Shown here: positions 205 to 26,519 of the stretch, piece by piece
Position numbering within the stretch: position 1 is the first letter of the stretch
How the letters are laid out: every line of letters starts with the position of its first letter
NCBI GenBank assembly: GCA_030673425.1
Contig: DAOVJB010000001.1
Location: 1-32,288, forward strand
Source of the DNA: Elusimicrobiota bacterium
Lineage (GTDB): Bacteria; CAYTYR01; UBA6262; DAOVJB01
DNA length: 32,288 nucleotides
Direction of reading: 5' to 3'
The notes under the pieces: model-generated
Told to the model about the DNA's origin: nothing
What the model saw: the letters and a program-made list of their open reading frames with translations, nothing else
Databases searched by the model: none
Translations under genes and position numbers: made by a program

Positions 205-792
205 ATGAAGAAATCAATCCTACTGTTCAGTCTGTTATTAGTAGTATTGATATTAAATCCTCTTTATTTAAGAGCAGAGGTAAAGAATGAAATATCGATA
301 ACAGCAGTGGAAGTTAAAAACTCAACTGCTACTATTACCATAAATAACTGTTTGAAGATTGAAGACATTCAACTTGTTTATGATGAAGAAAGTAAGAATT
401 ATCTTAAGTTTCCTGAATATATTGATAAAGATGCCAAAACTGTCCCTTATGTAACAGTATTAAATGATGAAGCAAAAAATATAATTGAAGAGGCTGTATA
501 TAATAACAAACCTTCAGATAAGGTAATAAAGAGTATAAATTATAAAATCGCTGATATTACTCTATACGAAGATGAAAAAAGTAATATTAAAGCTTTAGCA
601 ATTGTAGTATTTAACGAGGCTATTTCTGTTGAGGTAAGGGTATTAGAAACAGAAGGTAAATTATGGGTTATGTGGCCAATGAGAAAAGACAAAGAAACTA
701 ATCAATGGGTAAAACAGATAGAGGTTACCAAGAAACCTATAAGAGATATGATAGAAAAAATAATTATTAAGAAATATAAGAAATTAATATAA
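205..792 (+). CDS. Secreted hypothetical protein with two SpoVG-like repeats
   Basis: RBS AAGGAG lies upstream. The N-terminus MKKSILLFSLLLVVLILNPLYLRA|EV looks like a Sec signal peptide. The second half (YKIADITLYEDEKSNIKALAIVVFNEAISVEVRVLETEGKLWVMWPMRKDKETNQWVKQIEVTKKPIRDMIEKIIIKKY) resembles the SpoVG fold pattern (ITDVRL..KA.ASV.F...F.V.D.RV..G..GLFVAMPS.K...G...D...P....R..I...I). The first half (ISITAVEVKNSTATITINNCLKIEDIQLV...) is a weaker copy. Confidence 0.5.
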   Translation: MKKSILLFSLLLVVLILNPLYLRAEVKNEISITAVEVKNSTATITINNCLKIEDIQLVYDEESKNYLKFPEYIDKDAKTVPYVTVLNDEAKNIIEEAVYNNKPSDKVIKSINYKIADITLYEDEKSNIKALAIVVFNEAISVEVRVLETEGKLWVMWPMRKDKETNQWVKQIEVTKKPIRDMIEKIIIKKYKKLI

Positions 793-3924: not shown

Positions 3925-5298
3925 ATGCGAAAAATAATAGCAGAGCGAAGAGGATTAAAACGGATAAAAATAGATTTACCCATTAGGTATTGTTATCATG
4001 ATATTATGGGGCCAGCAGCTTCTAGAGAAGCAACTGCACTCGATATAAGCTCAGGTGGGATTTCATTTAAGGTAGGGGAGACTTTTTCACTTTCTACCAT
4101 ATTGAAAGTTGAGGTAGACCTTCCTGCATTTCCAAAGCCGGTTGAGATTTTGGTAAAAGTCGTAAGAGTGGAACAAACTGATAAAGAAAATAATTTTATT
4201 GTAGGAACTACTATTACACGTATTAACGAGCAAGACAAACAAAAGATAACTATCTATTTTGAACAAGCTGACATTCTTGAATTATTTCAGGCAACAGTAG
4301 ATGCCCTAGCCTCTGATTTGCATTTATCTGTAAACCATCCTCCCATATTGCGTGTCGGAGGAGAGTTGCAGCCTATACGTAATAAAGGAGTATATAATTC
4401 AATGGATTTAAAACGCATTATTTATAGTATTATGACTGAAGAGCAAATAAAGTTTTTTGAAGAAAACCTGGAATTAGATTTCTCCTATTCTGTTTCTCCT
4501 ATTATTCGTTTTCGTGTTAATGTGCATTTACAAAGAGGTAATGTAGAAGCAGCTTTTAGAAGAATTGAGGCACGAATTAAAACTATACAGGAGCTCGGCT
4601 TACCAACGGTAGTGGCTGACTTGGCAAGAAAAAGAAGAGGAATAGTCCTTTTGACAGGAGCTACCGGCAGTGGGAAAACCACGACCATGACAGCTATGGT
4701 TGACTTAATTAATTCTGAAAGGGAATGTTTAATTATAACTCTGGAGGACCCAATTGAGTATGTTCACGTATATAAGAAGAGTATAATTAAGCAAAGAGAG
4801 ATTGGTATGGATACTAAATCATTTGCTACTGCACTAAGGCATGCGATGCGTCAGGATCCGGACGTTATTGTAGTAGGAGAAATTCGTGATTTAGAAACAA
4901 TCTCTACAGCTTTAGCAGCGGCAGAAACAGGCCATCTTATTATAGCGACTTTGCCTTCCTACGATGCTGCTCAATCTATTAGCCATATTGTACATATGTT
5001 CCCTGCACAGCAACAGAGACAGATCAGATTACAACTAGCTGATACTCTACAGGGTATCGTTAACCAGGTTTTGTTACCACGAGCAGACAATCCCTTTGAA
5101 CGCGTAGTAGCTACTGAAACCTTGATTACAACGTCAGCGGTGCGTAATATTATCCGTGAACAAAGATTAGAACAATTACCTTACATTATTCAAACAGGTT
5201 CGCAGTTTGGCATGCATACTATGCAGAATTCATTAGAAAGATTACATAATAAAGGAATAATAACTAAAGAATCAATGATGAAGCGTTCCAAGAGTTAA
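3925..5298 (+). CDS. pilT: PilZ domain-fused type IV pilus twitching-motility (retraction) ATPase PilT
   Basis: aa 1-~110 form a PilZ domain with RxxxR (R9-GLK-R13) and DxSxxG (D40-ISSGG). aa ~115-457 form a full PilT: ASDLHL N-domain, Walker A GATGSGKTT, Asp box ITLEDPIEY, Walker B DPDVIVVGEIRD, His box TGHLIIATLPS, C-terminal AVRNIIRE. Confidence 0.9.
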   Translation: MRKIIAERRGLKRIKIDLPIRYCYHDIMGPAASREATALDISSGGISFKVGETFSLSTILKVEVDLPAFPKPVEILVKVVRVEQTDKENNFIVGTTITRINEQDKQKITIYFEQADILELFQATVDALASDLHLSVNHPPILRVGGELQPIRNKGVYNSMDLKRIIYSIMTEEQIKFFEENLELDFSYSVSPIIRFRVNVHLQRGNVEAAFRRIEARIKTIQELGLPTVVADLARKRRGIVLLTGATGSGKTTTMTAMVDLINSERECLIITLEDPIEYVHVYKKSIIKQREIGMDTKSFATALRHAMRQDPDVIVVGEIRDLETISTALAAAETGHLIIATLPSYDAAQSISHIVHMFPAQQQRQIRLQLADTLQGIVNQVLLPRADNPFERVVATETLITTSAVRNIIREQRLEQLPYIIQTGSQFGMHTMQNSLERLHNKGIITKESMMKRSKS

Positions 5299-5334: not shown

Positions 5335-6615
5335 ATGAAACAAAAAGATAAAAAAGTACTTTTGATAGACGATTCTATTTTTGCGCATACTGTTGTGAAG
5401 GATTTATTTGATGGGCATGAATTTGACCTGGTTGCTGCTGCAATAGACGGTGAAAAGGGGGTAGAATTATTTAAGGAAACAAAACCCGATGTTGTTCTTC
5501 TTGACATTGTTCTTCCCGGAAAGCAGGGGGATGAGATTTTAGAGGATATATTAAAGATTAACTCGGACGCCAAAATTATAATGGTCAGTTCTTTGGCTAC
5601 TGAAAACAAGATATTGAAATGCCTCAGAAAAGGAGCCAAGAACTTTGTTCCTAAGCCTTTCGAAAAGCAAGAGCTGATTAACGCAATAGAAGAAGTAACT
5701 AAAACAGGAGCGGTATCATATTCAGTGGTATCTGTATTAAAAGATGCAAACATCGGCGGTAAGTTCTTCGGTCAATATCTTCTGGCTAAAAATAAAATCA
5801 CCTCCCAAGAGTTGGAGGCTGCCCTTAAATATCAAAAAGAAAAGAATTTGACTCTTGAGACTATTTGCAAGAGGGAAGGGTTGCTTAATGAAGATGAGGC
5901 CAAGCAGGTTCATAATGTGCAGAAGGAATTTCCGGATAAGAGCTTTGCAGAAATCGTTGTAGAGAAAAACTTTTTGGACCAGGAAACATTAGAGGATGTC
6001 ATAAAGGAGCAGAAGAAAAATCAGGTTTATTTAGGTCAGGCTCTGGTGGGTGTCGGGGCAGTGTCTCAAGAAGAGATAAATCAGGAACTTAAAAATTATA
6101 AAGAAGAACAGGACAGGATTGAGGGAGAAATAGTCTATAACCTCTACAAGCTTGAGGATAAGGATGCAGTTAAAATATTTGTGAGCTTTACCGTAAATGC
6201 GATTAAGCTATTTGAGCAGATGCTCGGGATTCCTGTTAAGATGAACAGGTGTGTACCTTTAGCCGATTCATTTGAGACCAGGGAATACCTGATTGAACAG
6301 AAGGCGCACGGGGCGCTCAAGACATCTTTTCTTTTTAATTTTTCCAAAGAGATGGCCAGGTGTATATCTTCTGTTTTATTTTCAAAAGAGGTTACTAATG
6401 TAGATACCTATGGTATTGATGCATTAAAGGAGTTCCTGAATATAGTCAGCGGGAATTGTTGTTCCAAATTGAGTAATATCGGGGTGAATATCGAGATGAA
6501 AGCTCCTGAGCTATGGGTGGAAGGAACTTATCCGAAAAAAGGGAAGTTTACCTATGTTTCTCTGATCTCATCCGGGGGAGATTTTGAGATTTTGATGAAA
6601 CTGGATAAAGTATAG
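5335..6615 (+). CDS. Response regulator: REC + four MshEN/T2SSE_N-like 24-aa repeats + CheX/CheC-like C-terminal domain
   Basis: REC hallmarks: D12/D13, D57 in VVLLDIVLPG, S85/S86, K107 in PKPF. aa 144-255 carry four repeats fitting (R)LGxxLLxxGLLxxxxLxxxLxxQ in two pairs, each pair separated by 5 aa. aa ~275-426 resemble CheX (VKIFVSFTVNAIKLFEQMLG..., DALKEFLNIVSGNCCSKLSNIGVNIEMKAPE). Confidence 0.75.
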   Translation: MKQKDKKVLLIDDSIFAHTVVKDLFDGHEFDLVAAAIDGEKGVELFKETKPDVVLLDIVLPGKQGDEILEDILKINSDAKIIMVSSLATENKILKCLRKGAKNFVPKPFEKQELINAIEEVTKTGAVSYSVVSVLKDANIGGKFFGQYLLAKNKITSQELEAALKYQKEKNLTLETICKREGLLNEDEAKQVHNVQKEFPDKSFAEIVVEKNFLDQETLEDVIKEQKKNQVYLGQALVGVGAVSQEEINQELKNYKEEQDRIEGEIVYNLYKLEDKDAVKIFVSFTVNAIKLFEQMLGIPVKMNRCVPLADSFETREYLIEQKAHGALKTSFLFNFSKEMARCISSVLFSKEVTNVDTYGIDALKEFLNIVSGNCCSKLSNIGVNIEMKAPELWVEGTYPKKGKFTYVSLISSGGDFEILMKLDKV

Positions 6616-6661: not shown

Positions 6662-7156
6662 ATGGCTAATTTTTCTTTTGATGTTGTATCTGAGGTGGAC
6701 TTACAGGAAGTTGATAATGCGGTTAATCAGGCAAAAAAAGAACTGCTTCAGAGATATGATTTTAAGAACTCCAAGTGCTCCATTGATTTTAACAGAAATG
6801 AAAAAAAGATAACTTTGATCGGAGACGATGACTTTAAACTCCGTGCTGTTAAAGATGTTTTAGCCACAAAAATGGTTAAAAGGGGTGTTAAACTTAAAGC
6901 TCTCCTGTTTAGAGAACCTCAGAAAGCATTTGAAGGGTCTTTGAGGCAACTTGTTGATATATCCGTAGGTATTGATAAGGAAAAAGCTAAGGAACTGGTT
7001 AAGATTATAAAAAAACTGAGATTAAAGGTGCAGGCTAGTATAGAAGGAGAAAAATTAAGAGTTTCTAGTCCTAAAAAAGATGACCTACAAGTAGTTATTG
7101 CGCATCTAAAAAGCATTGATTTTCCGTTAGCTCTTAGTTTTCGTAATTATAGATGA
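6662..7156 (+). CDS. yajQ: YajQ family (UPF0234) nucleotide / cyclic-di-GMP-binding protein
   Basis: Characteristic N-terminus MANFSFDVVSEVDLQEVDNAVNQAKKELLQRYDFKNS and a length of 164 aa. Confidence 0.9.
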   Translation: MANFSFDVVSEVDLQEVDNAVNQAKKELLQRYDFKNSKCSIDFNRNEKKITLIGDDDFKLRAVKDVLATKMVKRGVKLKALLFREPQKAFEGSLRQLVDISVGIDKEKAKELVKIIKKLRLKVQASIEGEKLRVSSPKKDDLQVVIAHLKSIDFPLALSFRNYR

Positions 7157-17125: not shown

Positions 17126-17659
17126 ATGTTGTGTAATATCTGTCATAAAAAAGAGGCAGTAATTCATTTTACGGAAATAATAGATAACCAGATAACAAAA
17201 TTGCATCTGTGTGAGGAATGTGCCAAGACTAAAGGATTGCAGTTTCCTTTTGGAAAACCACTTTTTTCTATGGCTGATTTATTGGCAGGTTTAAGCAATT
17301 TTGATACATATTCTTTGGAACAAAAAGCCAAGGTAAAGTGTCCAAATTGTGGGGTTACATATAACGATTTCAAGAGGAACGGTAAATTGGGCTGCAGCGA
17401 ATGTTATAGTTGCTTTAAGGCTGAACTCAAGCCTATTCTTAAAAGAATCCACGGAGGAATTTCTCACCTGGGTAAAGCTCCTGTAGCCAGAGGTAAAAAA
17501 ACTACACGCAGGAAGAAAAAAACAACAGGCCCTCCATCTGTTGACATCCAGATAAATCAACTGCATACAGAATTGCAAGAAGCAGTTAAAAATGAAGAAT
17601 ATGAAAAAGCAGCTGTGATTAGAGACAAAATAAAAGAATTAAAAAGGAGTAGTGTATGA
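17126..17659 (+). CDS. mcsA: McsA-like protein (four CxxC zinc-finger motifs + UVR domain), activator of protein arginine kinase
   Basis: CNIC...CEEC and CPNC...CSEC motifs. C-terminal UVR motif LQEAVKNEEYEKAAVIRDKIKELK. 4-nt overlap with mcsB. Confidence 0.85.
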   Translation: MLCNICHKKEAVIHFTEIIDNQITKLHLCEECAKTKGLQFPFGKPLFSMADLLAGLSNFDTYSLEQKAKVKCPNCGVTYNDFKRNGKLGCSECYSCFKAELKPILKRIHGGISHLGKAPVARGKKTTRRKKKTTGPPSVDIQINQLHTELQEAVKNEEYEKAAVIRDKIKELKRSSV

Positions 17660-18702
17660 AGCTGAAATATATGCTTGAGGAAAAAAGCGGATGGCTTACA
17701 GGGGAAGGTCCTTCCCTTGAGGTTGTAATATCAAGCAGGATAAGATTAGCCAGGAATCTTTCAGAATATCTTTTTCCGAACAAGTCCCAGGAAGACCAAC
17801 AGAAACAAGTTTTTAAGTTAATAACTGAGGCTGTAAAAAAGAGCAATTATTTTAAGAATGCGGCTATTTTAAGGTTAAATGATCTGGAAAAGGTGGACAG
17901 GCAACTTTTAATGGAAAGGCACCTTGTGAGTTTTGAGCATGCCCGTGGGAAAGGTGAAAGGGGGATAATTATAGGTGATAAGGAAATAATAAGCATCATG
18001 ATCAATGAGGAAGACCACCTGCGCATACAGGCATTACAGCCTGGTTTCCAGCTGTCAGAGGTATGGGATTTTATCACCCGGATTGACGATGAACTGTCAA
18101 AATATCTTGATTATGCTTTTAGTGAGGAATGGGGTTATCTCACATCATGTCCCACTAATACAGGAACAGGGATACGTGCATCAGTCTTAATACATCTTCC
18201 GGGATTAGTTATTACGGGTGAGATAAATAAAGTATTAGAGGCTTTGTCAAAATTAGGACTGGCGGCACGGGGACTTTACGGGGAAGGGACAAGGGTTATG
18301 GGAGATTTCTTCCAGATTTCTAACCAGGTTACATTATGTCAGACCGAAGAAAATATTATAGATAATATAGAACGTGTGGTAAAGCAGATTATAGGTTATG
18401 AATTAAAGGCACGGGAGATGTTGAAAAAGGATACCATGGAAGAAAACTATGATAGAGTTTACCGTGCTTACGGAATCTTGAAAAATGCCCGTACTATTAG
18501 TTTTGTAGAAGCAATGGAATTGTTATCTAAGGTAAGATTAGGAGTAGATATAGGAATTGATTTGGGTGTCGATATAGGTATTCTTAATGAGCTTATGATT
18601 TTTACTCAGCCGGCACACCTGCAGGAATCCTCAGGAAAGATATTAGACCCTCACGAAAGGGATATACTGAGGGCAAAGTTTATCAGGGAAAAATTGAGTT
18701 AA
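17656..18702 (+). CDS. mcsB: Protein arginine kinase McsB (ATP:guanido phosphotransferase)
   Basis: ISSRIRLARN, NEEDHLRIQ, GYLTSCPTNTGTGIRASVLIHLPG, LYGEG are phosphagen-kinase-type catalytic motifs. Confidence 0.92.
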   Translation: MKLKYMLEEKSGWLTGEGPSLEVVISSRIRLARNLSEYLFPNKSQEDQQKQVFKLITEAVKKSNYFKNAAILRLNDLEKVDRQLLMERHLVSFEHARGKGERGIIIGDKEIISIMINEEDHLRIQALQPGFQLSEVWDFITRIDDELSKYLDYAFSEEWGYLTSCPTNTGTGIRASVLIHLPGLVITGEINKVLEALSKLGLAARGLYGEGTRVMGDFFQISNQVTLCQTEENIIDNIERVVKQIIGYELKAREMLKKDTMEENYDRVYRAYGILKNARTISFVEAMELLSKVRLGVDIGIDLGVDIGILNELMIFTQPAHLQESSGKILDPHERDILRAKFIREKLS

Positions 18703-18729
18703 AGAAAGTTATATAGGAGGAGATTTAAG

Positions 18730-21195
18730 ATGTTTAATCGTTTTACTGAGAGGGCACAAAAGGTTATTCTCTTGGCCCAGGAAGAGGCTAAGAAATTAAA
18801 TCATGATTATTTAGGTACGGAACACCTGCTTTTAGGATTGGTTGCTTTGGGTGAAGGTGTTGCTGCAGTTGCTTTGAATAATTTAGGTATAGATTTAAGA
18901 AAATTACGCCAGGAAGTGGAAAAAGCTATCGGGATAGGAGAGAACATATTGCTTCTCGGAGAAATCCCGTTTACTCCCCGGGCCAAAAAAGTGTTGGAAC
19001 TATCGGTAGAGGAAGCCCAGGATATGGGACATAATTATGTAGGTACAGAGCATATCCTGTTAGGGTTAATAAGGGAAGGGGAGGGAGTAGCAGCTAGGGT
19101 TTTGAGTTCATTAGGGATAAATTTAGAAAAACTTAAAGCAGAAATTGTAAATATATTAGGTGAAATCGGAGCTGCCCCTCAGGATGAGGGTCCGTCTAAA
19201 CCCAGGCATAGAACGAAGTCAAATAGTCCTACACTCGATTCTTTCGGTAGGGATTTGACCGTTCTTGCTCAGGAGTCCAGGCTTGATCCTGTAATTGGAC
19301 GTGAATCAGAGATTGAGAGAGTCATTCAGATTCTTTGCAGGAGAACAAAGAATAATCCTGCCTTAATCGGTGAGCCCGGTGTGGGAAAAACAGCTATTGT
19401 GGAAGGATTGGCACAGAAGATTGCTAGTAATAACGTACCTGAGATTTTGTTAAATAAAAGAGTGTTGACTCTTGATTTAGCCGGTGTAGTAGCAGGAACG
19501 AAATACAGAGGAGAATTTGAACAGCGCTTGAAACTTATCGTTGAAGAGATTCGTCGTGCGAGAAACAGTATAATTCTTTTTATTGATGAACTACATACCG
19601 TGGTTGGAGCCGGAGCGGCTGAAGGAGCCATTGATGCATCTAATATGTTAAAACCTGCCCTTGCACGTGGAGAACTGCAGTGTATAGGAGCTACAACATT
19701 AAATGAGTATAAAAAATATATTGAACATGATGCGGCTTTAGAGAGGAGATTTCAATCGGTTATGGTGGACCCTGCTACTGTTGAGGAAACAAAGGCGATA
19801 TTAAAAGGCCTCCGGGATAAGTATGAGGCCCACCATAGGGTCAGAATTACTGATAAAGCCATTGATGCTGCCGCAGAGTTGTCCAACAGATATATTGCTG
19901 ACAGATTCCTTCCGGATAAGGCTATTGATTGTATTGATGAGGCAGGAGCCCGGATAAGGTTAAAAAGTACCATGTTGCCTCCTGATATCAAGAATTTAGA
20001 GAATGAGATTGAACAGACAGACGAAGAAAAGAAAGCAGCAACGGCTACGCAGGAATTTGAAAAGGCTGCTAAACTCAGGGATAAAGAAAAAGAGTTAAAA
20101 ACAAAATTAGAGAAAATAAAAGATGAGTGGGAGCAGAAAAAAACTCAGAAAGAACCTGTTGTTACGGAGGAAGATATTGCTTATGTTGTTTCTAAGTGGA
20201 CAGGAGTTCCTGTTGAAAAACTTACAGAAAAAGAATCGGATAAATTACTCAGGATGGAGGATTACCTGCATAAAAGAGTAATCGGGCAGGATGCGGCCAT
20301 AAAGGTCGTTTCTCAGGCCGTGCGTCGTTCACGTACGGGATTAAAAGATCCGAAAAGGCCTATTGGTTCATTTATATTTTTGGGACCTACCGGCGTGGGT
20401 AAGACAGAGTTAGCCAGGACTCTGGCAGAGTTCTTATTCGGTAATGAAGAAGCTATGATTCGTATTGATATGAGTGAATATATGGAGAAATTTGCGGTTT
20501 CACGTTTAATTGGTGCTCCTCCGGGATATGTTGGTTATGAAGAAGGCGGGCAATTAACAGAACAGGTAAGGCGCAGGCCATACTCCGTGATACTTTTAGA
20601 TGAAATTGAAAAAGCACATTCTGATGTATTTAATATTCTGCTTCAGGTTATGGATGACGGGCAGCTTAGTGATAACCTTGGTCATACTGTAAGTTTCAGG
20701 AATACCGTTATAATCATGACCGCTAATATTGGTGCAAGGGAGATAAAAAATGGCAGGGCACTGGGCTTTCAGGCCAGCGAAGACACAGATAAAACCTATA
20801 GTCAAATGAAAGACATTGTTCTTGAGCAAATGAAAAAAACATTTAATCCTGAATTTCTTAATCGTATTGATGAAATAGTTGTTTTTCATGCTTTGTCTAA
20901 AGATGATATGAGAAAAATTGTTGATTTGATGTTAAATAATGTCATTACAAGACTCAAAGAACAAAATGTTGTTTTAGATGTTTCTAAACTCGCACGAGAG
21001 TTCCTTTTAGAGAAGGGATATGACCCTGCTTTTGGTGCACGGCCACTCAGAAGAGCTATCCAGAAATATTTAGAAGACGCTCTTGCTTCTGAAATGTTAT
21101 CCAAGCAATTTTCAAAAGGAAAAGTTATTTATATTGAATTAGCAGAAGATAAGGAGAAGCTCGTTTTTAAGGAAAAAGTCGCACAGCAAAATTAA
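18730..21195 (+). CDS. clpC: ATP-dependent Clp protease ATP-binding subunit ClpC
   Basis: Two Clp_N repeats. AAA-1 Walker A GEPGVGKT and Walker B FIDELH. Middle UVR motif [18 protein letters not shown]-2 GPTGVGKTE and [10 protein letters not shown]-terminal [10 protein letters not shown]. Confidence 0.95.
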
Positions 21196-21332
21196 TATGT
21201 CCTGACAACCTACTTTTATTTCCTTCCGGTTTATGGCCTTAAACATTACTCTAAAATGTGAATATTGGTTGGGAGTATCTTAGTTATTATTATTTCTGTC
21301 ATAGGCTAGTATATATCACAAGGATTGTTTCT

Positions 21333-24300
21333 ATGCGTAAGAGGAAGAGGATAATTACAATATCGGTAATATTGATTTGTCTCCTAGTAGGTACCTATTT
21401 AGCTATGAGGTCAGGCATATTCGCTGAACAGTTTAAAGGGGTAGCTGTTAGGGAATTGGAAAAATTGTTCTCAAGAAAAGTACATATCAGACATATTGAT
21501 ACTAATTTCTTCAACCGTATCAACTTGAGAGGTGTAAGGATCGCTAAAGGGTCTGATTTTACCAAAGGGGATCTACTCACTATAGATAAGGTATCCATCC
21601 ACTTAAATCTTTTGAACTTTATTAACAAGAAACCAAAGTTAGTGGATGCTATTAAAAGTATCACCCTCGTTAAGCCAGCTTTTGAACTTAGCAATAAGGA
21701 AGGTAATTGGAACATAAGTTTACCTTTGGCCTCAGGTCCGGAAGAATCTCTCAGGTTAAAGGTTTTTATTTACCGGGGGCAGGTATCAGTAGAGGATGTA
21801 TCAGGCGGTCCGTTTGATAAGTTAAAATTGCGTTCATTAAAAGGGCTGATTGATTTATCGCTTCCGGCAAAGAAGCATATTCAGTTTACGACAAAAACCA
21901 GCTTAAGTAAAAAAGACAAAGTTTCTTTGAATATCGATTTTCTAGGTGATAATTTTGAGGCAGATCTGATTTTAGAAAAAGGTAATCTGTCTAATTATTC
22001 AAAATTGATAAAATTTTCTATCAGTAAATATAATTTGACTGAGGGTTTATTTGACGGAAATGTTTCCCTGGTCGGAAATATGCAGAATTTTAACAATATT
22101 GTCTATAAGGGGAAATTGAATATTAAAGAAGCAACCGTTCAGATTGAAGATGTAAAAGAAGATATATCCGATATTAAAGCGGAACTGGTGCTGGAAAACG
22201 GAATGATCTCTTCGAATAAAATTACCGCAAAACTCGGTAAATATCCTTTTACACTAAGAGGCAATGTTCTTGGATTTGAGTCTGATATTTCTTTGGATTT
22301 AGAATTAGATTTTCCAGATGCCGAGTATGACTTGCTTACAGAACTGGCAGATTCTATCGCATCAATCGGGGAAATATATACACTGGGACAGGGTAGTTTT
22401 GATTGCCGTGTTAAAGGACCCCTGGATGACCTGAGTGTAGACGGCCGGGTTAAAATAATAAAAGGAGAGGTGTTAAAAGAAAAGGTTTCGGACCTTACGG
22501 CTAAATTCCAGTATCAAAATAAATTATTCAGTTTACTTAGTTTATCAACAGGATTTTATAAAGGGCGGATGTCTGTTAGTGGAACAGTAGGCGTAAGCAA
22601 AAAGCCTGCTGTGCTTAATTTTGATTTGAGGGCTGAGAATGTGGATTTACCTGGCTACTTAAGATTAGCCGAGAATCAAAAAGATGTTAAAGGTCGGGCT
22701 ACATTGATTGGAAAAGTAACCGGTAATGTATTCGCGCCTTTATTACAAGCAAAGGTGACCTCGAACAGTTTATATTTAATGAAATATGAGATTCCTATTC
22801 TGGAGGGTAAGCTTAAATATCATAAGGATGAACTTCTTATAAACACCTATACAACCGATCGAAAATACAAGGTTGATACAACACTATATTTAAGGAAGGA
22901 TTCAATTTCAGTAAAGGAATTTAGTGTCTCCTGGGATAAGAGTATGCTCAATATAGAGGGTGTGATTGACCTTAAAAATAAAAACATGGATTTAGATATT
23001 AAAACTTCAGGGCTTAAAGCAGAGGATTTTCCTCCTGTTAAGAAGTATTATAAAGATTTAACCGGTGAGTTTTCTTTCAGCGGTAAGTTGAAAGGGAAAT
23101 TAGATGACTTGGCAGTAAGTGGTAAAATTTTATCAGAAGATTTATTGCTTGCCAAAAAGAAGGTCAGTTTATTTGCTGATTTTACATTTAGCGGAAAAGC
23201 ATTAGACATTGCCTCACTAGAAATAAATAAGGCTTATAAAGCTAAGGGAAAAATTATTTTTAGCGATATGCCAGATTCTCCTTATCTTGATGTTGATATT
23301 TCTGTAGAGGACGGCCAGCTTTATATATTGGGTGTTTTATGCAGGATAGGAAAGGCGAGTGATGAAAATATTAAAGGCATAATAGACGGCAATCTGAGAT
23401 TAAAAGGGCCATTTAGGGATTTAACAGGTGGCGGAGAAATTAAACTTCAGAAAACTACTGTTTGGGACAGGAGGATAGAAAATTTACATTCCTCTTTCGC
23501 TATTTATAACAACAAGTTGGATATTGCCAAATTTATTCTCCAGCAGAACGGGGGTAAAATAAAAGGTACGGCACAGTTTGGAATTAAGGCAGATTCTATT
23601 AATGAGTTTAACTTAGATTTAGATTTAGAAGAATTTATGTTTGAGGAAATATTGTTTGCCGGTGACTTAAACGTGAAGGGAACATTAGGTTACGGCGACA
23701 AAAAAGAAGCCAAGGCCATACTACTTACATCGGGCTTGAAAATAAATAACCAGCCGCAGGAAATAAAAGCAAGACTGACATATGAAGATAAAATCCTTTA
23801 TATTTCACCTGTGAGCTCAAAGGATAATTATACGTTTACTGGAGATATTAATTTTAAGCAGGAACCTGAGATGGATGTCAAGTTGAATATAAAAAACGTC
23901 TCTGTTGGGCATTTATTGAGGTTAGTTAAAGTTTCCGGGGTAGATGAATTTACAGGGAACCTGAACGGATATGTAAGGTTTAAGGGTAGCTTGAGAAATC
24001 CTGAATTGATAGGAAATGTAGATATCAATAAAGGCAACTTAAGAAATTTTGAGTTTGATAAACTGAAGGTCCTTTTATTATTCAAAGATAACATCCTTTT
24101 TCTTAAAGAAGTAAAGGGAACATCAAAGAAAGGCAAATTTTTAGTCAGAGGTAATATTAATTTTGATAAGGCTGAACAGCAGTTAGATTTAGCGATAGAA
24201 ATGGAGGATATGGAATTAAAATCTTTAAGCAATGCTTATTTACCGCGGCTGAAGGAACCTGTTGATGCCCGTCTTAATGGTGCGTTCAAGGTTACAGGCA

Positions 24301-26519
24301 ATTTTGTCCTTCCTGTTGTTGAAGGCAATCTAATATTTACTGACTTTAGGTTTAATAAATATAGGGTTGCTTCTATTACTACCGATTTTTCCTTTAAGGA
24401 CAAGACATTTAAGATTCTGAGGTTAAGAGCGGAGGAATCAGGAGGTGTATTGAAGATTTCAGAAGGCAGCGGTATAGAGTTGATTTCCGACGGTGTTTTT
24501 TCCTTTGATTTACTTGTTGACCTGAGGAATATTAATCTGGCGGGGCTGTCTCTATTCGGGGGGGTATACTTAAAAGGGAAAATAGACTCTACCGGATCAG
24601 ATACTCGGATTCTTGTCGATATTATAACTGATGGTCTGTGGATGAACGAGCATAAATTTGATAAATCAAAGCTTAAAGTATCTTACTCATCAGGTGAGCT
24701 AGAATTTTTGCCTGTTCCTAAAAACCACACTCAACTAATAGGGAAAATTAATTTCAAAGAGAAAGGAGTTTATTATTTCAAGGACATTTATGTCTTAAAA
24801 AATAACAGAAAGATTCTTATTGCCCAGGGATATATAAAGGAGAAAGACAGGATTGATTTAACAATGAAGACCGAAAACTTTGATGCGGGGGTAATAGCTG
24901 GACTAATCGGAATAAAAGTTCCGGTTGATGGAATGACTTCATTGGATTTGAAAATCTCAGGAACACAGGATAGCCCTTACCTTACGGGTAATATAGGTAT
25001 TGCGAAAGGGGGCTTTGGAAAGTTTAAGTTCGATAATTTAAGTATCGTTGCCACAGCCATGGACGGGGTTATTAACATAAAGAGGTTAAGCATTGATTTA
25101 TCAAAAGATAAGCTGAATATCGTTGGTAAAGGAGAAATACCTTTTGCTTTCACTAAAGAGGCTAAGCAAAAGATTAAAGGTCAGCAGATAAATTTGAGTC
25201 TGGATATTTTTAGAAGCAACCTGAGTATTTTAACTGATTTATCCAGTAAAATCAGAAAGGCTTCCGGGGAAATAGATGCAAAATTAGATGTGAAAGGAAC
25301 AATTGATGATCCTTTAGTGAATGGGTATATAAAACTACGGCAAGGTAAAATTACGGCTAAAGAGGTTATTAAAAAGGCTACCGATGTTGAAATAGATATT
25401 ATAATCGTAAAAAATAAAATAACGATTAACAAATTAAGTGGAAAGATTGGAGATGGATACTTAAATATAGCAGGAAATGTCAGGATAGAGAATTATTCGT
25501 TAAAAGAATTTGACGTAGAATTGGCCACATCTCGGAATGTGGGCATAAACTTGAGTATTATGGGTTTTATCCCCAAAGGTAAGCCTAAAATGAGAGTTCA
25601 TATTTACGGAAATGAGAAAATTCATTATCTTGATGGTGAAATAGAACTTGTAAATACGCATTTTACATATCCTCCACAGAAAACCAATGGGGGTGGGGGA
25701 AAGGATATTTTTGAGATAGACTTTTTTAAGAACGCCATCTGGAATTTAGAAATCCGTGCCGGAGATAATACCTGGTATGAGAATAATCTGGTAACAGCAA
25801 ATATAACAGGAGGTCTTGAGTTTAAGGGCAGGGAGGAAAATTTCAGGGTAACAGGTACGGTAGAAGCACTTAAAGGGGACGTGGAATATATGGGAGTGGA
25901 GTTTAAGATTCTGCATGCCGTGTTAGCATTTCATGATAATGTTGCTTATTTAGAAGGCAAGGGCGAAACAAAAAAGGAAGATGATATTATTACGTTAGTT
26001 ATAGAGAAGACCAGGTTAAAAGATATAAAGCCTAAATTCTATTCCCAGCAGAATCCCGAAATGAGTCAGGAGAAAGTTATAGGTTTGTTGATTTATGGAA
26101 AAGATTTTAGCGATCCGCAGCAGGATGCATTATATAAAGAAGATTTGAACAAATTCTTGCTTAGAGAGATGTTTAAGTTAGTGGATGCTAACCTGAGTAG
26201 CAGGTTTATACGTCCTATTCTAAAAGACGTTGGTTTAGATGAATTGGTTGATGTGGTGAAAGTAAAAACCATGATTGTTGAAAAGAGCACTTCTCCTGAA
26301 GAATCCATATTAGAAGGTTCGCAGCTTACTTTTGGTAAATATTTCACCAACAGAGTATACGTAAGCTATACGACGCTTTTTAAGGCGGGTTTAGCTAATA
26401 AATTAGAATTAAAACACAGGGTGGAGTTGGAATACAGGATACAGGGCAGTAAGTTCTTGAAAATGAGAATGGACAGCGAAGAGAAATTCATGGGTATTGA
26501 GAATCAGATTCGTTTTTAA
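21333..26519 (+). CDS. tamB: Translocation and assembly module protein TamB-like (AsmA-like/DUF490 giant envelope protein)
   Basis: ATG 21333 gives MRKRKRIITISVILICLLVGTYLAM, a basic stretch plus a single N-terminal TM anchor. A long repetitive beta-rich body follows. The C-terminal DUF490-like end is GKYFTNRVYVSYTT...LELEYRIQGSKFLKMRMDSEEKFMGIENQIRF. The ORF track starts at GTG 21258, but those 25 extra codons look non-coding. Confidence 0.85.
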   Translation: MRKRKRIITISVILICLLVGTYLAMRSGIFAEQFKGVAVRELEKLFSRKVHIRHIDTNFFNRINLRGVRIAKGSDFTKGDLLTIDKVSIHLNLLNFINKKPKLVDAIKSITLVKPAFELSNKEGNWNISLPLASGPEESLRLKVFIYRGQVSVEDVSGGPFDKLKLRSLKGLIDLSLPAKKHIQFTTKTSLSKKDKVSLNIDFLGDNFEADLILEKGNLSNYSKLIKFSISKYNLTEGLFDGNVSLVGNMQNFNNIVYKGKLNIKEATVQIEDVKEDISDIKAELVLENGMISSNKITAKLGKYPFTLRGNVLGFESDISLDLELDFPDAEYDLLTELADSIASIGEIYTLGQGSFDCRVKGPLDDLSVDGRVKIIKGEVLKEKVSDLTAKFQYQNKLFSLLSLSTGFYKGRMSVSGTVGVSKKPAVLNFDLRAENVDLPGYLRLAENQKDVKGRATLIGKVTGNVFAPLLQAKVTSNSLYLMKYEIPILEGKLKYHKDELLINTYTTDRKYKVDTTLYLRKDSISVKEFSVSWDKSMLNIEGVIDLKNKNMDLDIKTSGLKAEDFPPVKKYYKDLTGEFSFSGKLKGKLDDLAVSGKILSEDLLLAKKKVSLFADFTFSGKALDIASLEINKAYKAKGKIIFSDMPDSPYLDVDISVEDGQLYILGVLCRIGKASDENIKGIIDGNLRLKGPFRDLTGGGEIKLQKTTVWDRRIENLHSSFAIYNNKLDIAKFILQQNGGKIKGTAQFGIKADSINEFNLDLDLEEFMFEEILFAGDLNVKGTLGYGDKKEAKAILLTSGLKINNQPQEIKARLTYEDKILYISPVSSKDNYTFTGDINFKQEPEMDVKLNIKNVSVGHLLRLVKVSGVDEFTGNLNGYVRFKGSLRNPELIGNVDINKGNLRNFEFDKLKVLLLFKDNILFLKEVKGTSKKGKFLVRGNINFDKAEQQLDLAIEMEDMELKSLSNAYLPRLKEPVDARLNGAFKVTGNFVLPVVEGNLIFTDFRFNKYRVASITTDFSFKDKTFKILRLRAEESGGVLKISEGSGIELISDGVFSFDLLVDLRNINLAGLSLFGGVYLKGKIDSTGSDTRILVDIITDGLWMNEHKFDKSKLKVSYSSGELEFLPVPKNHTQLIGKINFKEKGVYYFKDIYVLKNNRKILIAQGYIKEKDRIDLTMKTENFDAGVIAGLIGIKVPVDGMTSLDLKISGTQDSPYLTGNIGIAKGGFGKFKFDNLSIVATAMDGVINIKRLSIDLSKDKLNIVGKGEIPFAFTKEAKQKIKGQQINLSLDIFRSNLSILTDLSSKIRKASGEIDAKLDVKGTIDDPLVNGYIKLRQGKITAKEVIKKATDVEIDIIIVKNKITINKLSGKIGDGYLNIAGNVRIENYSLKEFDVELATSRNVGINLSIMGFIPKGKPKMRVHIYGNEKIHYLDGEIELVNTHFTYPPQKTNGGGGKDIFEIDFFKNAIWNLEIRAGDNTWYENNLVTANITGGLEFKGREENFRVTGTVEALKGDVEYMGVEFKILHAVLAFHDNVAYLEGKGETKKEDDIITLVIEKTRLKDIKPKFYSQQNPEMSQEKVIGLLIYGKDFSDPQQDALYKEDLNKFLLREMFKLVDANLSSRFIRPILKDVGLDELVDVVKVKTMIVEKSTSPEESILEGSQLTFGKYFTNRVYVSYTTLFKAGLANKLELKHRVELEYRIQGSKFLKMRMDSEEKFMGIENQIRF

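Follow-up and report, generated by a model that had tools for sequence, protein, structure and literature searches.

A gene on the forward strand (5335..6615) of a 32,288-nucleotide (nt) stretch of contig DAOVJB010000001.1 from an Elusimicrobiota bacterium (GenBank assembly GCA_030673425.1; hereafter, the window) encodes a response regulator of the REC-(MshEN_N)2-CheX type, in which a CheY-like receiver (REC) domain is followed by two modules related to the cyclic di-GMP (c-di-GMP)-binding domain of MshE and by a CheX-type phosphatase domain. The receiver and the phosphatase both look functional because the active-site residues of both are kept in homologues, and in a large family of relatives the CheX domain is recurrently linked to a REC domain, as the product of an adjacent gene or as a fusion. 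We put at about 0.5 the probability that the protein is a self-resetting receiver or a phosphate sink, in which the CheX domain would remove the phosphate from its partner REC domain and the helical modules would gate this reaction. The ligand site of the modules carries substitutions that are specific to the clade of the window protein.

Domain architecture and active-site residues

The window protein has a near-identical copy, P0001, and 16 other full-length homologues with 39-75% identity; the complete set (n = 17, 39-100% identical, 425-438 amino acids (aa)) is of metagenomic origin throughout. By alignment reading, P0001 and the window protein differ at two residues (S78P and A136V), and the window is apparently a close variant of the P0001 contig. 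The features of the gene are as follows.

5335..6615 (+), whole gene, REC-(MshEN_N)2-CheX response regulator, 426 aa plus stop (open reading frame list and translation)
5356..5691 (+), aa 8-119, CheY-like REC domain (PF00072), with the phospho-acceptor D57 at nt 5503-5505
5692..5763 (+), aa 120-143, linker, predicted to be flexible (predicted local distance difference test score (pLDDT) <50 at aa 128-143 in the full-length model)
5764..5922 (+), aa 144-196, MshEN_N module 1 (NF053729)
5764-5835 (+), aa 144-167, half-motif 1 of module 1, FFGQYLLAKNKITSQELEAALKYQ
5836-5850 (+), aa 168-172, spacer KEKNL between half-motifs 1 and 2
5851-5922 (+), aa 173-196, half-motif 2 of module 1, TLETICKREGLLNEDEAKQVHNVQ
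5941..6099 (+), aa 203-255, MshEN_N module 2 (NF053729)
5941-6012 (+), aa 203-226, half-motif 3 of module 2, SFAEIVVEKNFLDQETLEDVIKEQ
6013-6027 (+), aa 227-231, spacer KKNQV between half-motifs 3 and 4
6028-6099 (+), aa 232-255, half-motif 4 of module 2, YLGQALVGVGAVSQEEINQELKNY
6160..6603 (+), aa ~276-423, CheX-type phosphatase domain (PF13690, PF04509, phmmer, Foldseek)
6418..6441 (+), catalytic motif D362-A-L-K-E366-F-L-N369 (D/S-x3-E-x2-N), single copy
6505-6507 (+), conserved P391, part of the D-x3-E-x2-N...P motif

The receiver is readily recognized by PF00072 (E 2.4e-22, 79.6 bits against a cut-off of 30.2) and has the (beta/alpha)5 fold, with a template modelling (TM) score of 0.94-0.95 and a root-mean-square deviation (rmsd) of 1.2 A to Thermotoga maritima CheY (4iga/4qyw; Foldseek search of PDB). 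The active-site residues D12, D13, D57, S85 and K107 are invariant across the 17 full-length homologues, in agreement with the first-pass annotation, made from the sequence of the window, which had named D57 as the acceptor. In the C-terminal part, aa 325-394 match PF13690 (30.8 bits, cut-off 27) and the CheC-like family PF04509 (27.8 bits, cut-off 22), phmmer retrieves T. maritima CheX (1squ/1xko) with E 5e-4, and the AlphaFold model superposes on T. maritima CheX 1squ_B in Foldseek with a TM score of 0.81 and an rmsd of 2.6 A over 152 columns. The alpha/beta fold of CheX is similarly shared with 1squ, 1xko, 3hm4 and 6vpw (TM 0.79-0.82), so that the resemblance to the CheX/CheC fold suspected in the annotation is borne out.

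In the HMMER alignment, E366 and N369 fall on the EXXN residues of T. maritima CheX; EXXN is the catalytic motif shared by CheC and CheX (PMC12799141). All four residues of the extended motif (D362, E366, N369 and P391) are invariant in the 20 N-terminal REC fusions that we compared, and across 147 other, more distant representatives of the family, the E is kept in 142, the N in 141 and the P in 135. The Pfam scores exceed the cut-offs modestly, which would be compatible with a non-catalytic, binding version of the CheX-like domain and a role of the protein as an adaptor; given, however, that the complete D-x3-E-x2-N...P motif is invariant in the clade and nearly so in the wider family, and that the fold match is good, we consider such a role very improbable.

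The region between the two domains (aa 144-255, nt 5764-6099) consists of four 24-residue repeats that form two pairs, each with a 5-residue spacer, at the coordinates given in the first-pass annotation. The MshEN motif, RLGxx(L/V/I)(L/V/I)xxG(L/V/I)(L/V/I)xxxxLxxxLxxQ, likewise occurs as a pair separated by five residues (Wang et al. 2016, Nat Commun 7:12481, PMC5013675). The MshEN-like identity of the region, proposed from this periodicity, is supported by a specific profile, the curated NCBIfam model NF053729 ('cyclic di-GMP-binding domain, MshE-related'; 53 positions, cut-off 38 bits), which scores 64.3 bits on the whole protein in two stretches, with aa 145-196 aligned to model positions 2-53 without gaps. 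When the modules are scanned singly, the score is 40.8 bits (E 1.4e-10) for module 1 and 36.7 bits (E 2.6e-9), just below the cut-off, for module 2. The pattern of four repeats is more than chance; the internal repeat is better supported by the profile than by BLASTP of module 1 against module 2, in which only half-motif 1 against half-motif 4 aligns (E 0.004). The annotation had also proposed a search with PF05157 (T2SSE_N), which gave no match to the window protein at E<=1. Such a miss is expected because the model excludes the N-terminal four-helix bundle with the binding site (Wang et al. 2016 supplement, PMC5013675) and because the window protein has no T2SSE_N1 subdomain; we accordingly rejected PF05157 as a test of MshEN_N. 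Weak Pfam matches of the middle region to FumaraseC_C and DUF4388 were under the cut-offs and were not used.

The AlphaFold2 model of the whole protein (19 sequences; mean pLDDT 77.7) comprises the REC fold, a disordered linker (aa 128-143), eight helices arranged as four short-long pairs (aa 145-270) and an alpha/beta domain. The helices of module 1 span aa 145-151, 157-170, 174-180 and 186-198, and those of module 2 span aa 204-210, 216-228, 233-239 and 245-270. The REC and CheX domains dominate the Foldseek results for the whole model, and the middle region was therefore modelled on its own (aa 138-262; pLDDT 90.5), again yielding eight helices, which form two four-helix bundles. The best PDB match of this model is the N-terminal domain of Vibrio cholerae MshE with bound c-di-GMP (5htl_B; rmsd 0.9 A over 57 columns, probability 0.97), and the other leading fold matches are to the GSPII-B domain of Thermus thermophilus PilF (8pdk and 9glg). 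Sequence searches of PDB with the whole protein return REC matches only; with the REC domain removed, PilF (6f8l, E 5.9e-6) and next T. maritima CheX emerge. The MshE N-terminal domain (5HTL) and the PilF GSPII-B/C domains share with the window modules the 24+5+24 architecture and the four-helix bundle; unlike the window modules, they add a T2SSE_N1 subdomain and regulate secretion and pilus ATPases. Thus, on both of the computable grounds on which the annotation could have failed, a mismatch to MshEN profiles and a C-terminal model other than CheX, the results came out in its favour.

Linkage of the receiver and the phosphatase in the wider family

The combination of MshEN with REC and with CheX was noted by Wang et al. 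2016 (PMC5013675), whose Supplementary Table 4 includes '(MshEN_N)2 - CheX', represented by Geobacter lovleyi Glov_2742 and found in Deltaproteobacteria and Firmicutes, and 'REC - MshEN_N - UNK', represented by Bdellovibrio bacteriovorus Bd2402; the triple REC-(MshEN_N)2-CheX form is absent from that table. The first-pass annotation could not match the combination of domains to any characterised protein. This holds to the extent that we found no characterised member; the core, on the other hand, is already catalogued and belongs to a large family. The core architecture is thus catalogued and unstudied, and the window protein represents a diverged, fused form of it.

With a profile built from aa 138-426, a search of 1.84 billion cluster representatives (50% identity) retrieved 6857 proteins at E<=1e-3; at E<=1e-30 there were 320 clusters, which aligned over profile positions ~3-282. 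Among the best 150 matches, most are 278-295 aa long, begin directly at the first half-motif and have no REC domain; two of these stand-alone proteins (P0021 and P0022) align throughout with aa 138-426 of the window protein. A REC domain is present at the N-terminus in P0002, P0008, P0057, P0070 and P0143 and at the C-terminus in P0084, P0087, P0123 and P0153, and P0116 carries a C-terminal PAS-histidine kinase. In the reference genomes, the family is represented in metagenome-assembled genomes (MAGs) labelled Elusimicrobia, Desulfobacterota/Deltaproteobacteria, Binatia, Nitrospirota, Planctomycetota, Sericytochromatia, Spirochaetia and others, and in Geomonas silvestris.

Of the published relatives, Glov_2742 (ACD96455; Wang et al. 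2016, Supplementary Table 4 and Fig. 3c) shares the core of two tandem MshEN_N modules and CheX, and its printed sequence (KFFGQFLV...KLGEMAV.../...KLGDLLV...LYIGEALVKVGALT...) plainly belongs to the same family. Proteins of this type can be aligned over their full length to aa 138-426 of the window protein and have in common with it a first half-motif K-F-F-G-Q-(Y/F)-L and a fourth half-motif (Y/F)-(I/L)-G-E-A-L-V; they differ in their length of ~285 aa, the lack of REC, and half-motifs 2 and 3 that begin with K-L-G rather than with T-L-E and S-F-A. Bd2402, like the window protein, is a response regulator with an internal MshEN_N that starts with F-L-G instead of R-L-G, but has one annotated module, a canonical R-I-G in the second half-motif and a C-terminal domain listed as UNK. 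A search for Bd2402 with the fragment of its sequence shown in the supplementary alignment of Wang et al. returned no candidate, probably due to optical character recognition errors in the fragment.

To survey gene context, open reading frames were called in the fetched loci (83 non-redundant loci) and searched with a REC profile and the core profile. The core gene stands alone in 68 of the 83 loci, and in 57 of these 68 (84%), a gene for a single-domain REC protein is adjacent, either immediately upstream on the same strand (45/68) or downstream (12/68); in the loci of P0021 and P0022, for example, 10 nt separate the end of a 128-aa REC gene from the core gene downstream. The remaining loci encode fusions, 11 of the REC-core type found in the window and 4 of the core-REC type. 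The REC domain of the window protein is more similar to the partner RECs than to other RECs in the same loci (median 73.7 and 33.8 bits, respectively; Mann-Whitney p 5.5e-13), a resemblance that may partly reflect general likeness among CheY-like receivers. Partnership with REC, through an adjacent gene or a fusion, is a feature derived here rather than a published criterion, and the window protein displays it as an N-terminal fusion. Because the stand-alone relatives adjoin single REC genes and fusions recur, the window gene is, as judged from these gene arrangements, a fusion of a conserved pair of cheY-like and sensor-cheX genes. The cheY-cheZ genes of Escherichia coli show the same kind of adjacency of an enzyme and its substrate.

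In some loci, the pair belongs to a recognizable signalling context. An uncultured deltaproteobacterial genome (L017 22-6855) contains the chemosensory array MCP-PBP-MCP-CheR-CheB-CheY (131 aa)-(MshEN_N)2-CheX, where MCP stands for methyl-accepting chemotaxis protein and PBP for periplasmic binding protein, and an MCP gene is located within 3 kb in at least 13 loci. Downstream of the clade-B paralogues (L004 9349-12318; L085 4398-7372) lie genes for a PAS-HisKA-HATPase kinase, a single-domain REC protein and a REC-HD-GYP protein of the c-di-GMP phosphodiesterase type, an arrangement that looks like a candidate phosphorelay and c-di-GMP circuit for the family. In clade C, the gene is flanked by DksA-RmuC on one side and a zinc-ribbon gene on the other. 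One MAG is the source of both P0002 (clade A) and P0017 (clade B), which are thus paralogues. The loci L001 and L004 (both from GCA_043821115.1) hold two paralogues of one MAG that are 75% and 41% identical to the window protein and differ in context.

Under the proposed mechanism, a histidine kinase encoded outside the window would phosphorylate D57 of the REC domain, and the CheX domain would insert E366 and N369 into the receiver active site and hydrolyse the acyl-phosphate. The substrate would most likely be the fused REC domain, reached in cis or across a CheX-type dimer, and the outcome would be a short-lived, self-resetting receiver or a phosphate sink drawing phosphate from its kinase. 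Access of the phosphatase to the receiver would be set by the two intervening helical modules; in the stand-alone relatives with canonical K/R-h-G...Q inner half-motifs, this gate would probably respond to c-di-GMP.

Alternatively, the REC domain could be the regulator of the enzyme, with phosphorylation of D57 lifting a CheB-like autoinhibition and a different response regulator, for example, a PilG/PilH-like one of the nearby type IV pilus system, serving as the substrate of the CheX domain. Enzymatic response regulators are commonly activated when phosphorylation of their REC domain relieves autoinhibition; the gene in the window follows one for a PilZ-PilT protein, with pilin-like genes at 9299-13333, and the clade-B loci hold extra REC proteins that are possible targets. 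The partner in the stand-alone relatives, however, is a separate CheY-sized protein placed as CheY is relative to cheZ/cheX, which fits a substrate better; furthermore, the linkage to PilT is missing in both relatives with readable context, and the window has no PilG/PilH-like gene. On this evidence, a regulatory REC domain with a target elsewhere appears rather unlikely.

Several observations weigh against the self-resetting receiver. Adjacency and fusion demonstrate partnership, not whether the REC domain is the substrate or the regulator of CheX, and the 32-kb window contains no kinase, CheA, CheW or MCP gene. With a predicted TM score (pTM) of 0.58 and a disordered linker between REC and the modules, the interdomain geometry of the full-length model is not reliable. 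The Foldseek E-values for the short helical middle region are 2.4-3.2, that is, not significant, so that the fold assignment draws on rank, the probability of 0.97 and rmsd. Literature searches retrieved no paper characterising any MshEN_N-CheX protein, and precedent from PilF and XpsE, detailed below, predicts weak or no canonical c-di-GMP binding by the window protein.

Compared with the classical CheX proteins, such as that of T. maritima (1XKO/1SQU) and that in the Borrelia burgdorferi CheX-CheY3 complex (3HZH), the CheX domain of the window protein shares the fold (TM ~0.8) and the single EXXN site, and the REC domain resembles CheY and CheY3. Classical CheX, however, is a stand-alone protein of ~150 aa without a sensor or receiver that functions in flagellar chemotaxis, and the window contains no flagellar or che genes. 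A functional analogue is the PlzC-CheX pair of V. cholerae, in which a c-di-GMP receptor modulates the activity of CheX on CheY-3; there, PlzC is a separate PilZ protein acting in trans, its effect on motility is separable from c-di-GMP binding, and neither MshEN_N nor a fusion is involved (PMC12799141).

That fusions recur in both domain orders marks the receiver as the partner of the phosphatase. The known links between c-di-GMP and chemotaxis mostly involve trans-acting PilZ proteins, such as YcgR, MapZ and PlzC. The family described here would connect the two directly, through a CheY-P phosphatase that contains its own c-di-GMP sensor modules and is encoded beside its CheY in many phyla. 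At the level of the family, this makes for a widespread and testable candidate for a c-di-GMP-gated CheY-P phosphatase.

Diverged ligand site of the MshEN_N modules

For ligand contact, we required Arg or Lys at position 1, Gly at position 3 and Gln at position 24 of each half-motif. In MshE and PilF GSPII-B/C, both halves have R, G and Q at these positions, whereas in the window protein key contacts are substituted, as they are in the non-binding PilF GSPII-A: half-motifs 1 to 4 have F, T, S and Y at position 1, G, E, A and G at position 3, and Q, Q, Q and Y at position 24. The leading Arg is absent from all four repeats and the Gly at position 10 is limited to repeats 2 and 4, as remarked in the first-pass annotation, whose caution over ligand binding was well placed. 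Even the relaxed search motif of Wang et al. is not satisfied by any of the half-motifs, which match 8, 6, 8 and 10 of its 11 positions.

We compared the half-motifs of the 20 N-terminal REC fusions, two of which are outside or at the edge of the clade of the window protein, with those of the 147 other representatives. Half-motif 2 begins with (S/T)-L-E in the fusions (S or T at position 1 in 17/20, Glu at position 3 in 18/20), compared to K, R or P at position 1 in 109/147 and Gly at position 3 in 132/147 of the others. In half-motif 3, the clade of the window protein has lost the basic residue and often the Gly, as opposed to R or K at position 1 in 73/147 and Gly in 130/147 of the other representatives. 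The outer half-motifs of the 147 others have F at position 1 in 128/147 (half-motif 1) and Y or F in 90/147 (half-motif 4). Stand-alone members of the family have canonical inner half-motifs and a half-motif 4 whose last residue is F, Y or H, not Gln. Because the canonical K/R-h-G is retained in the independent N-terminal REC fusion P0070, in the C-terminal REC fusions and in the kinase fusion, the changes in the inner half-motifs are specific to the lineage of the window protein.

Such changes have measurable consequences in related domains. In PilF GSPII-A, Ser in place of Arg at position 1 of motif II abolishes c-di-GMP binding, Ala in place of Gly at position 3 costs 10-30 fold, and a residue other than Gln at position 24 abolishes binding (PMC12002112); in XpsE, binding was lost through changes such as R38G, G40L, L54H and L58C (Wang et al. 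2016, PMC5013675). Conversely, aromatic residues may be acceptable at position 1 of half-motif 1, since tight c-di-GMP binding is reported for Bd2402, in which this half-motif starts with F-L-G (Wang et al. 2016, PMC5013675).

Conservation within the clade (18 members, down to 40% identity) is concentrated at the positions homologous to ligand contacts: 13 of these 24 positions are at least 90% conserved compared to 7 of the 68 other positions (Fisher p 3e-5), so that the ligand-facing surface is apparently still under selection. The clade-invariant residues of the modules include F144, F145, G146, Q167, E175, Q196, Q226 and G234, along with G241 and L252 in module 2 and N171 and K168 in the spacer. 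At positions 1-3 of half-motif 3, the most common residue has a frequency of 0.33-0.61, indicative of drift.

These observations bear on three views of the modules. Under the first, they bind c-di-GMP with useful affinity, and c-di-GMP and REC phosphorylation jointly set the activity of CheX. The score with NF053729 above the cut-off, the fold match to c-di-GMP-bound MshE and to PilF, the tight binding reported for Bd2402, the enrichment of contact positions among the conserved columns and the abundance of c-di-GMP-related elements in the window (PilZ-PilT, YajQ, a GEMM-I-type riboswitch) are all consistent with this possibility; the invariant Q167, Q196 and Q226, as well as G146 and G234, argue in the same direction, toward retained binding. 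Against it are the failure of all four half-motifs to satisfy the relaxed motif and the replacements R to T and G to E in half-motif 2, R to S and G to A in half-motif 3, and Q to Y in half-motif 4, which are of the kind that abolish or weaken binding in PilF GSPII-A and XpsE. Overall, a protein with two inputs of this sort appears possible, at odds clearly short of even.

Under the second view, phosphorylation replaced the nucleotide input after the fusion with REC, and the bundles are ligand-blind relics that serve as a rigid spacer or a dimerisation element. That the inner half-motifs have lost their basic residue and Gly in the clade of the window protein alone, with P0070 and the C-terminal REC and histidine kinase fusions remaining canonical, would fit this scenario, as would the drift in half-motif 3. 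It does not readily account for the three invariant Gln residues at position 24, which contact the ligand and have no obvious structural role, or for the invariant E175, N171 and K168, all of which suggest that the surface is still used; hence, we regard complete loss of ligand sensing as somewhat unlikely. In the clade of the window protein, the response to c-di-GMP has probably been altered, weakened or lost, and we see roughly even odds that some nucleotide still binds.

The third view, which we consider quite improbable, is that the modules have been re-tooled rather than lost. The half-sites that are kept are F144-F145-G146...Q167 in half-motif 1 and Y232-x-G234...Y255 in half-motif 4, with E175 in place of the Gly of half-motif 2; each module would thus retain one strongly conserved guanine half-site, and a single ligand bound across both modules, or a different nucleotide, would set the lifetime of the phosphate on the tethered CheY. 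If so, the re-tooled modules would represent a new binding mode or specificity for the MshEN fold within a self-resetting receiver, and the nearby riboswitch of the GEMM-I 'GGC' variant would suit an unusual nucleotide signal in the source organism. For the study of MshEN_N binding residues, the clade offers a natural series of mutants, with the canonical relatives as controls.

Genomic neighbourhood

The gene belongs to a co-directional array that encodes a SpoVG-like protein, YjbQ, QRPTase, BirA, PPIase, a PilZ-PilT fusion, the REC-(MshEN_N)2-CheX protein, YajQ and a DinG-like helicase, with gaps of 36 nt between the PilT gene and the REC-(MshEN_N)2-CheX gene and 46 nt between the latter and YajQ. 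The window is rich in c-di-GMP-related elements, which are listed here with the adjoining features.

3925-5298 (+), PilZ-PilT fusion, with an N-terminal PilZ domain in which the motifs R9-x3-R13 and D40-x-S42-x2-G45 are intact and a PilT/PilU retraction ATPase domain (TIGR01420, 418 bits)
6662-7156 (+), YajQ/DUF520-family protein (NCBIfam 'YajQ family cyclic di-GMP-binding protein', 188.8 bits), directly downstream of the REC-(MshEN_N)2-CheX gene
7153-9195 (+), DinG-like helicase gene, its start overlapped by the YajQ stop
9299-13333 (-), three pilin-like genes with prepilin-type N-termini, e.g. MFCLKNNKKGFTLIEIAF...
13401-13516 (-), GEMM-I-type riboswitch aptamer (Rfam RF03167 c-di-GMP-I-GGC, 67.8 bits, gathering score 59, E 3e-14)

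The adjacency to PilZ-PilT pointed out in the first-pass annotation is correct for the window, where the upstream gene indeed encodes this fusion, but is not conserved in relatives. In the 75%-identical relative, the YjbQ-QRPTase-BirA-PPIase order is kept, the regulator directly follows PPIase, no PilT precedes it, and no YajQ is found within ~5 kb downstream; in the 64%-identical relative, the same synteny is kept upstream, PilT is again absent, and YajQ is located three genes downstream. Because PilZ-PilT is missing before the gene in both readable relatives, the clustering is local and is weak evidence of a shared function. With the arrangement broken in these two relatives, a conserved c-di-GMP operon of PilZ-PilT, the response regulator and YajQ was rejected; scans for promoters and terminators around the gene gave no excess over shuffled controls and did not define an operon. 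The PilZ-PilT architecture itself (~456-472 aa) is found in at least 20 metagenomic clusters with 47-54% identity and accordingly represents a family rather than a one-off fusion.

The GEMM-I-type riboswitch lies directly upstream of the minus-strand pilin-like operon (11105-13333, 10520-11050, 9299-10507); to our knowledge, the ligand of the 'GGC' variant is not firmly established. The 742-aa pilin-like protein contains an N_methyl motif and CarboxypepD_reg repeats, and the 176-aa and 402-aa proteins have no Pfam match.

Elsewhere in the window, the gene at 205-792 (+) encodes a 195-aa protein with a hydrophobic, signal-like N-terminus and a C-terminal SpoVG domain (PF04026, E 1e-13), which is unusual for SpoVG. 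A trio of genes at 17126-21195 (+) encodes McsA-like (UVR motif), McsB-like (ATP:guanido phosphotransferase) and ClpC-like proteins, a set typical of protein quality control by arginine phosphorylation, and a 1753-aa protein of the AsmA/TamB family is encoded at 21258-26519 (+). The remaining part of the window contains housekeeping genes, including those for LysRS, a LolCE-like ABC system, S6-SSB-L9, DnaB, alanine racemase and MlaE.

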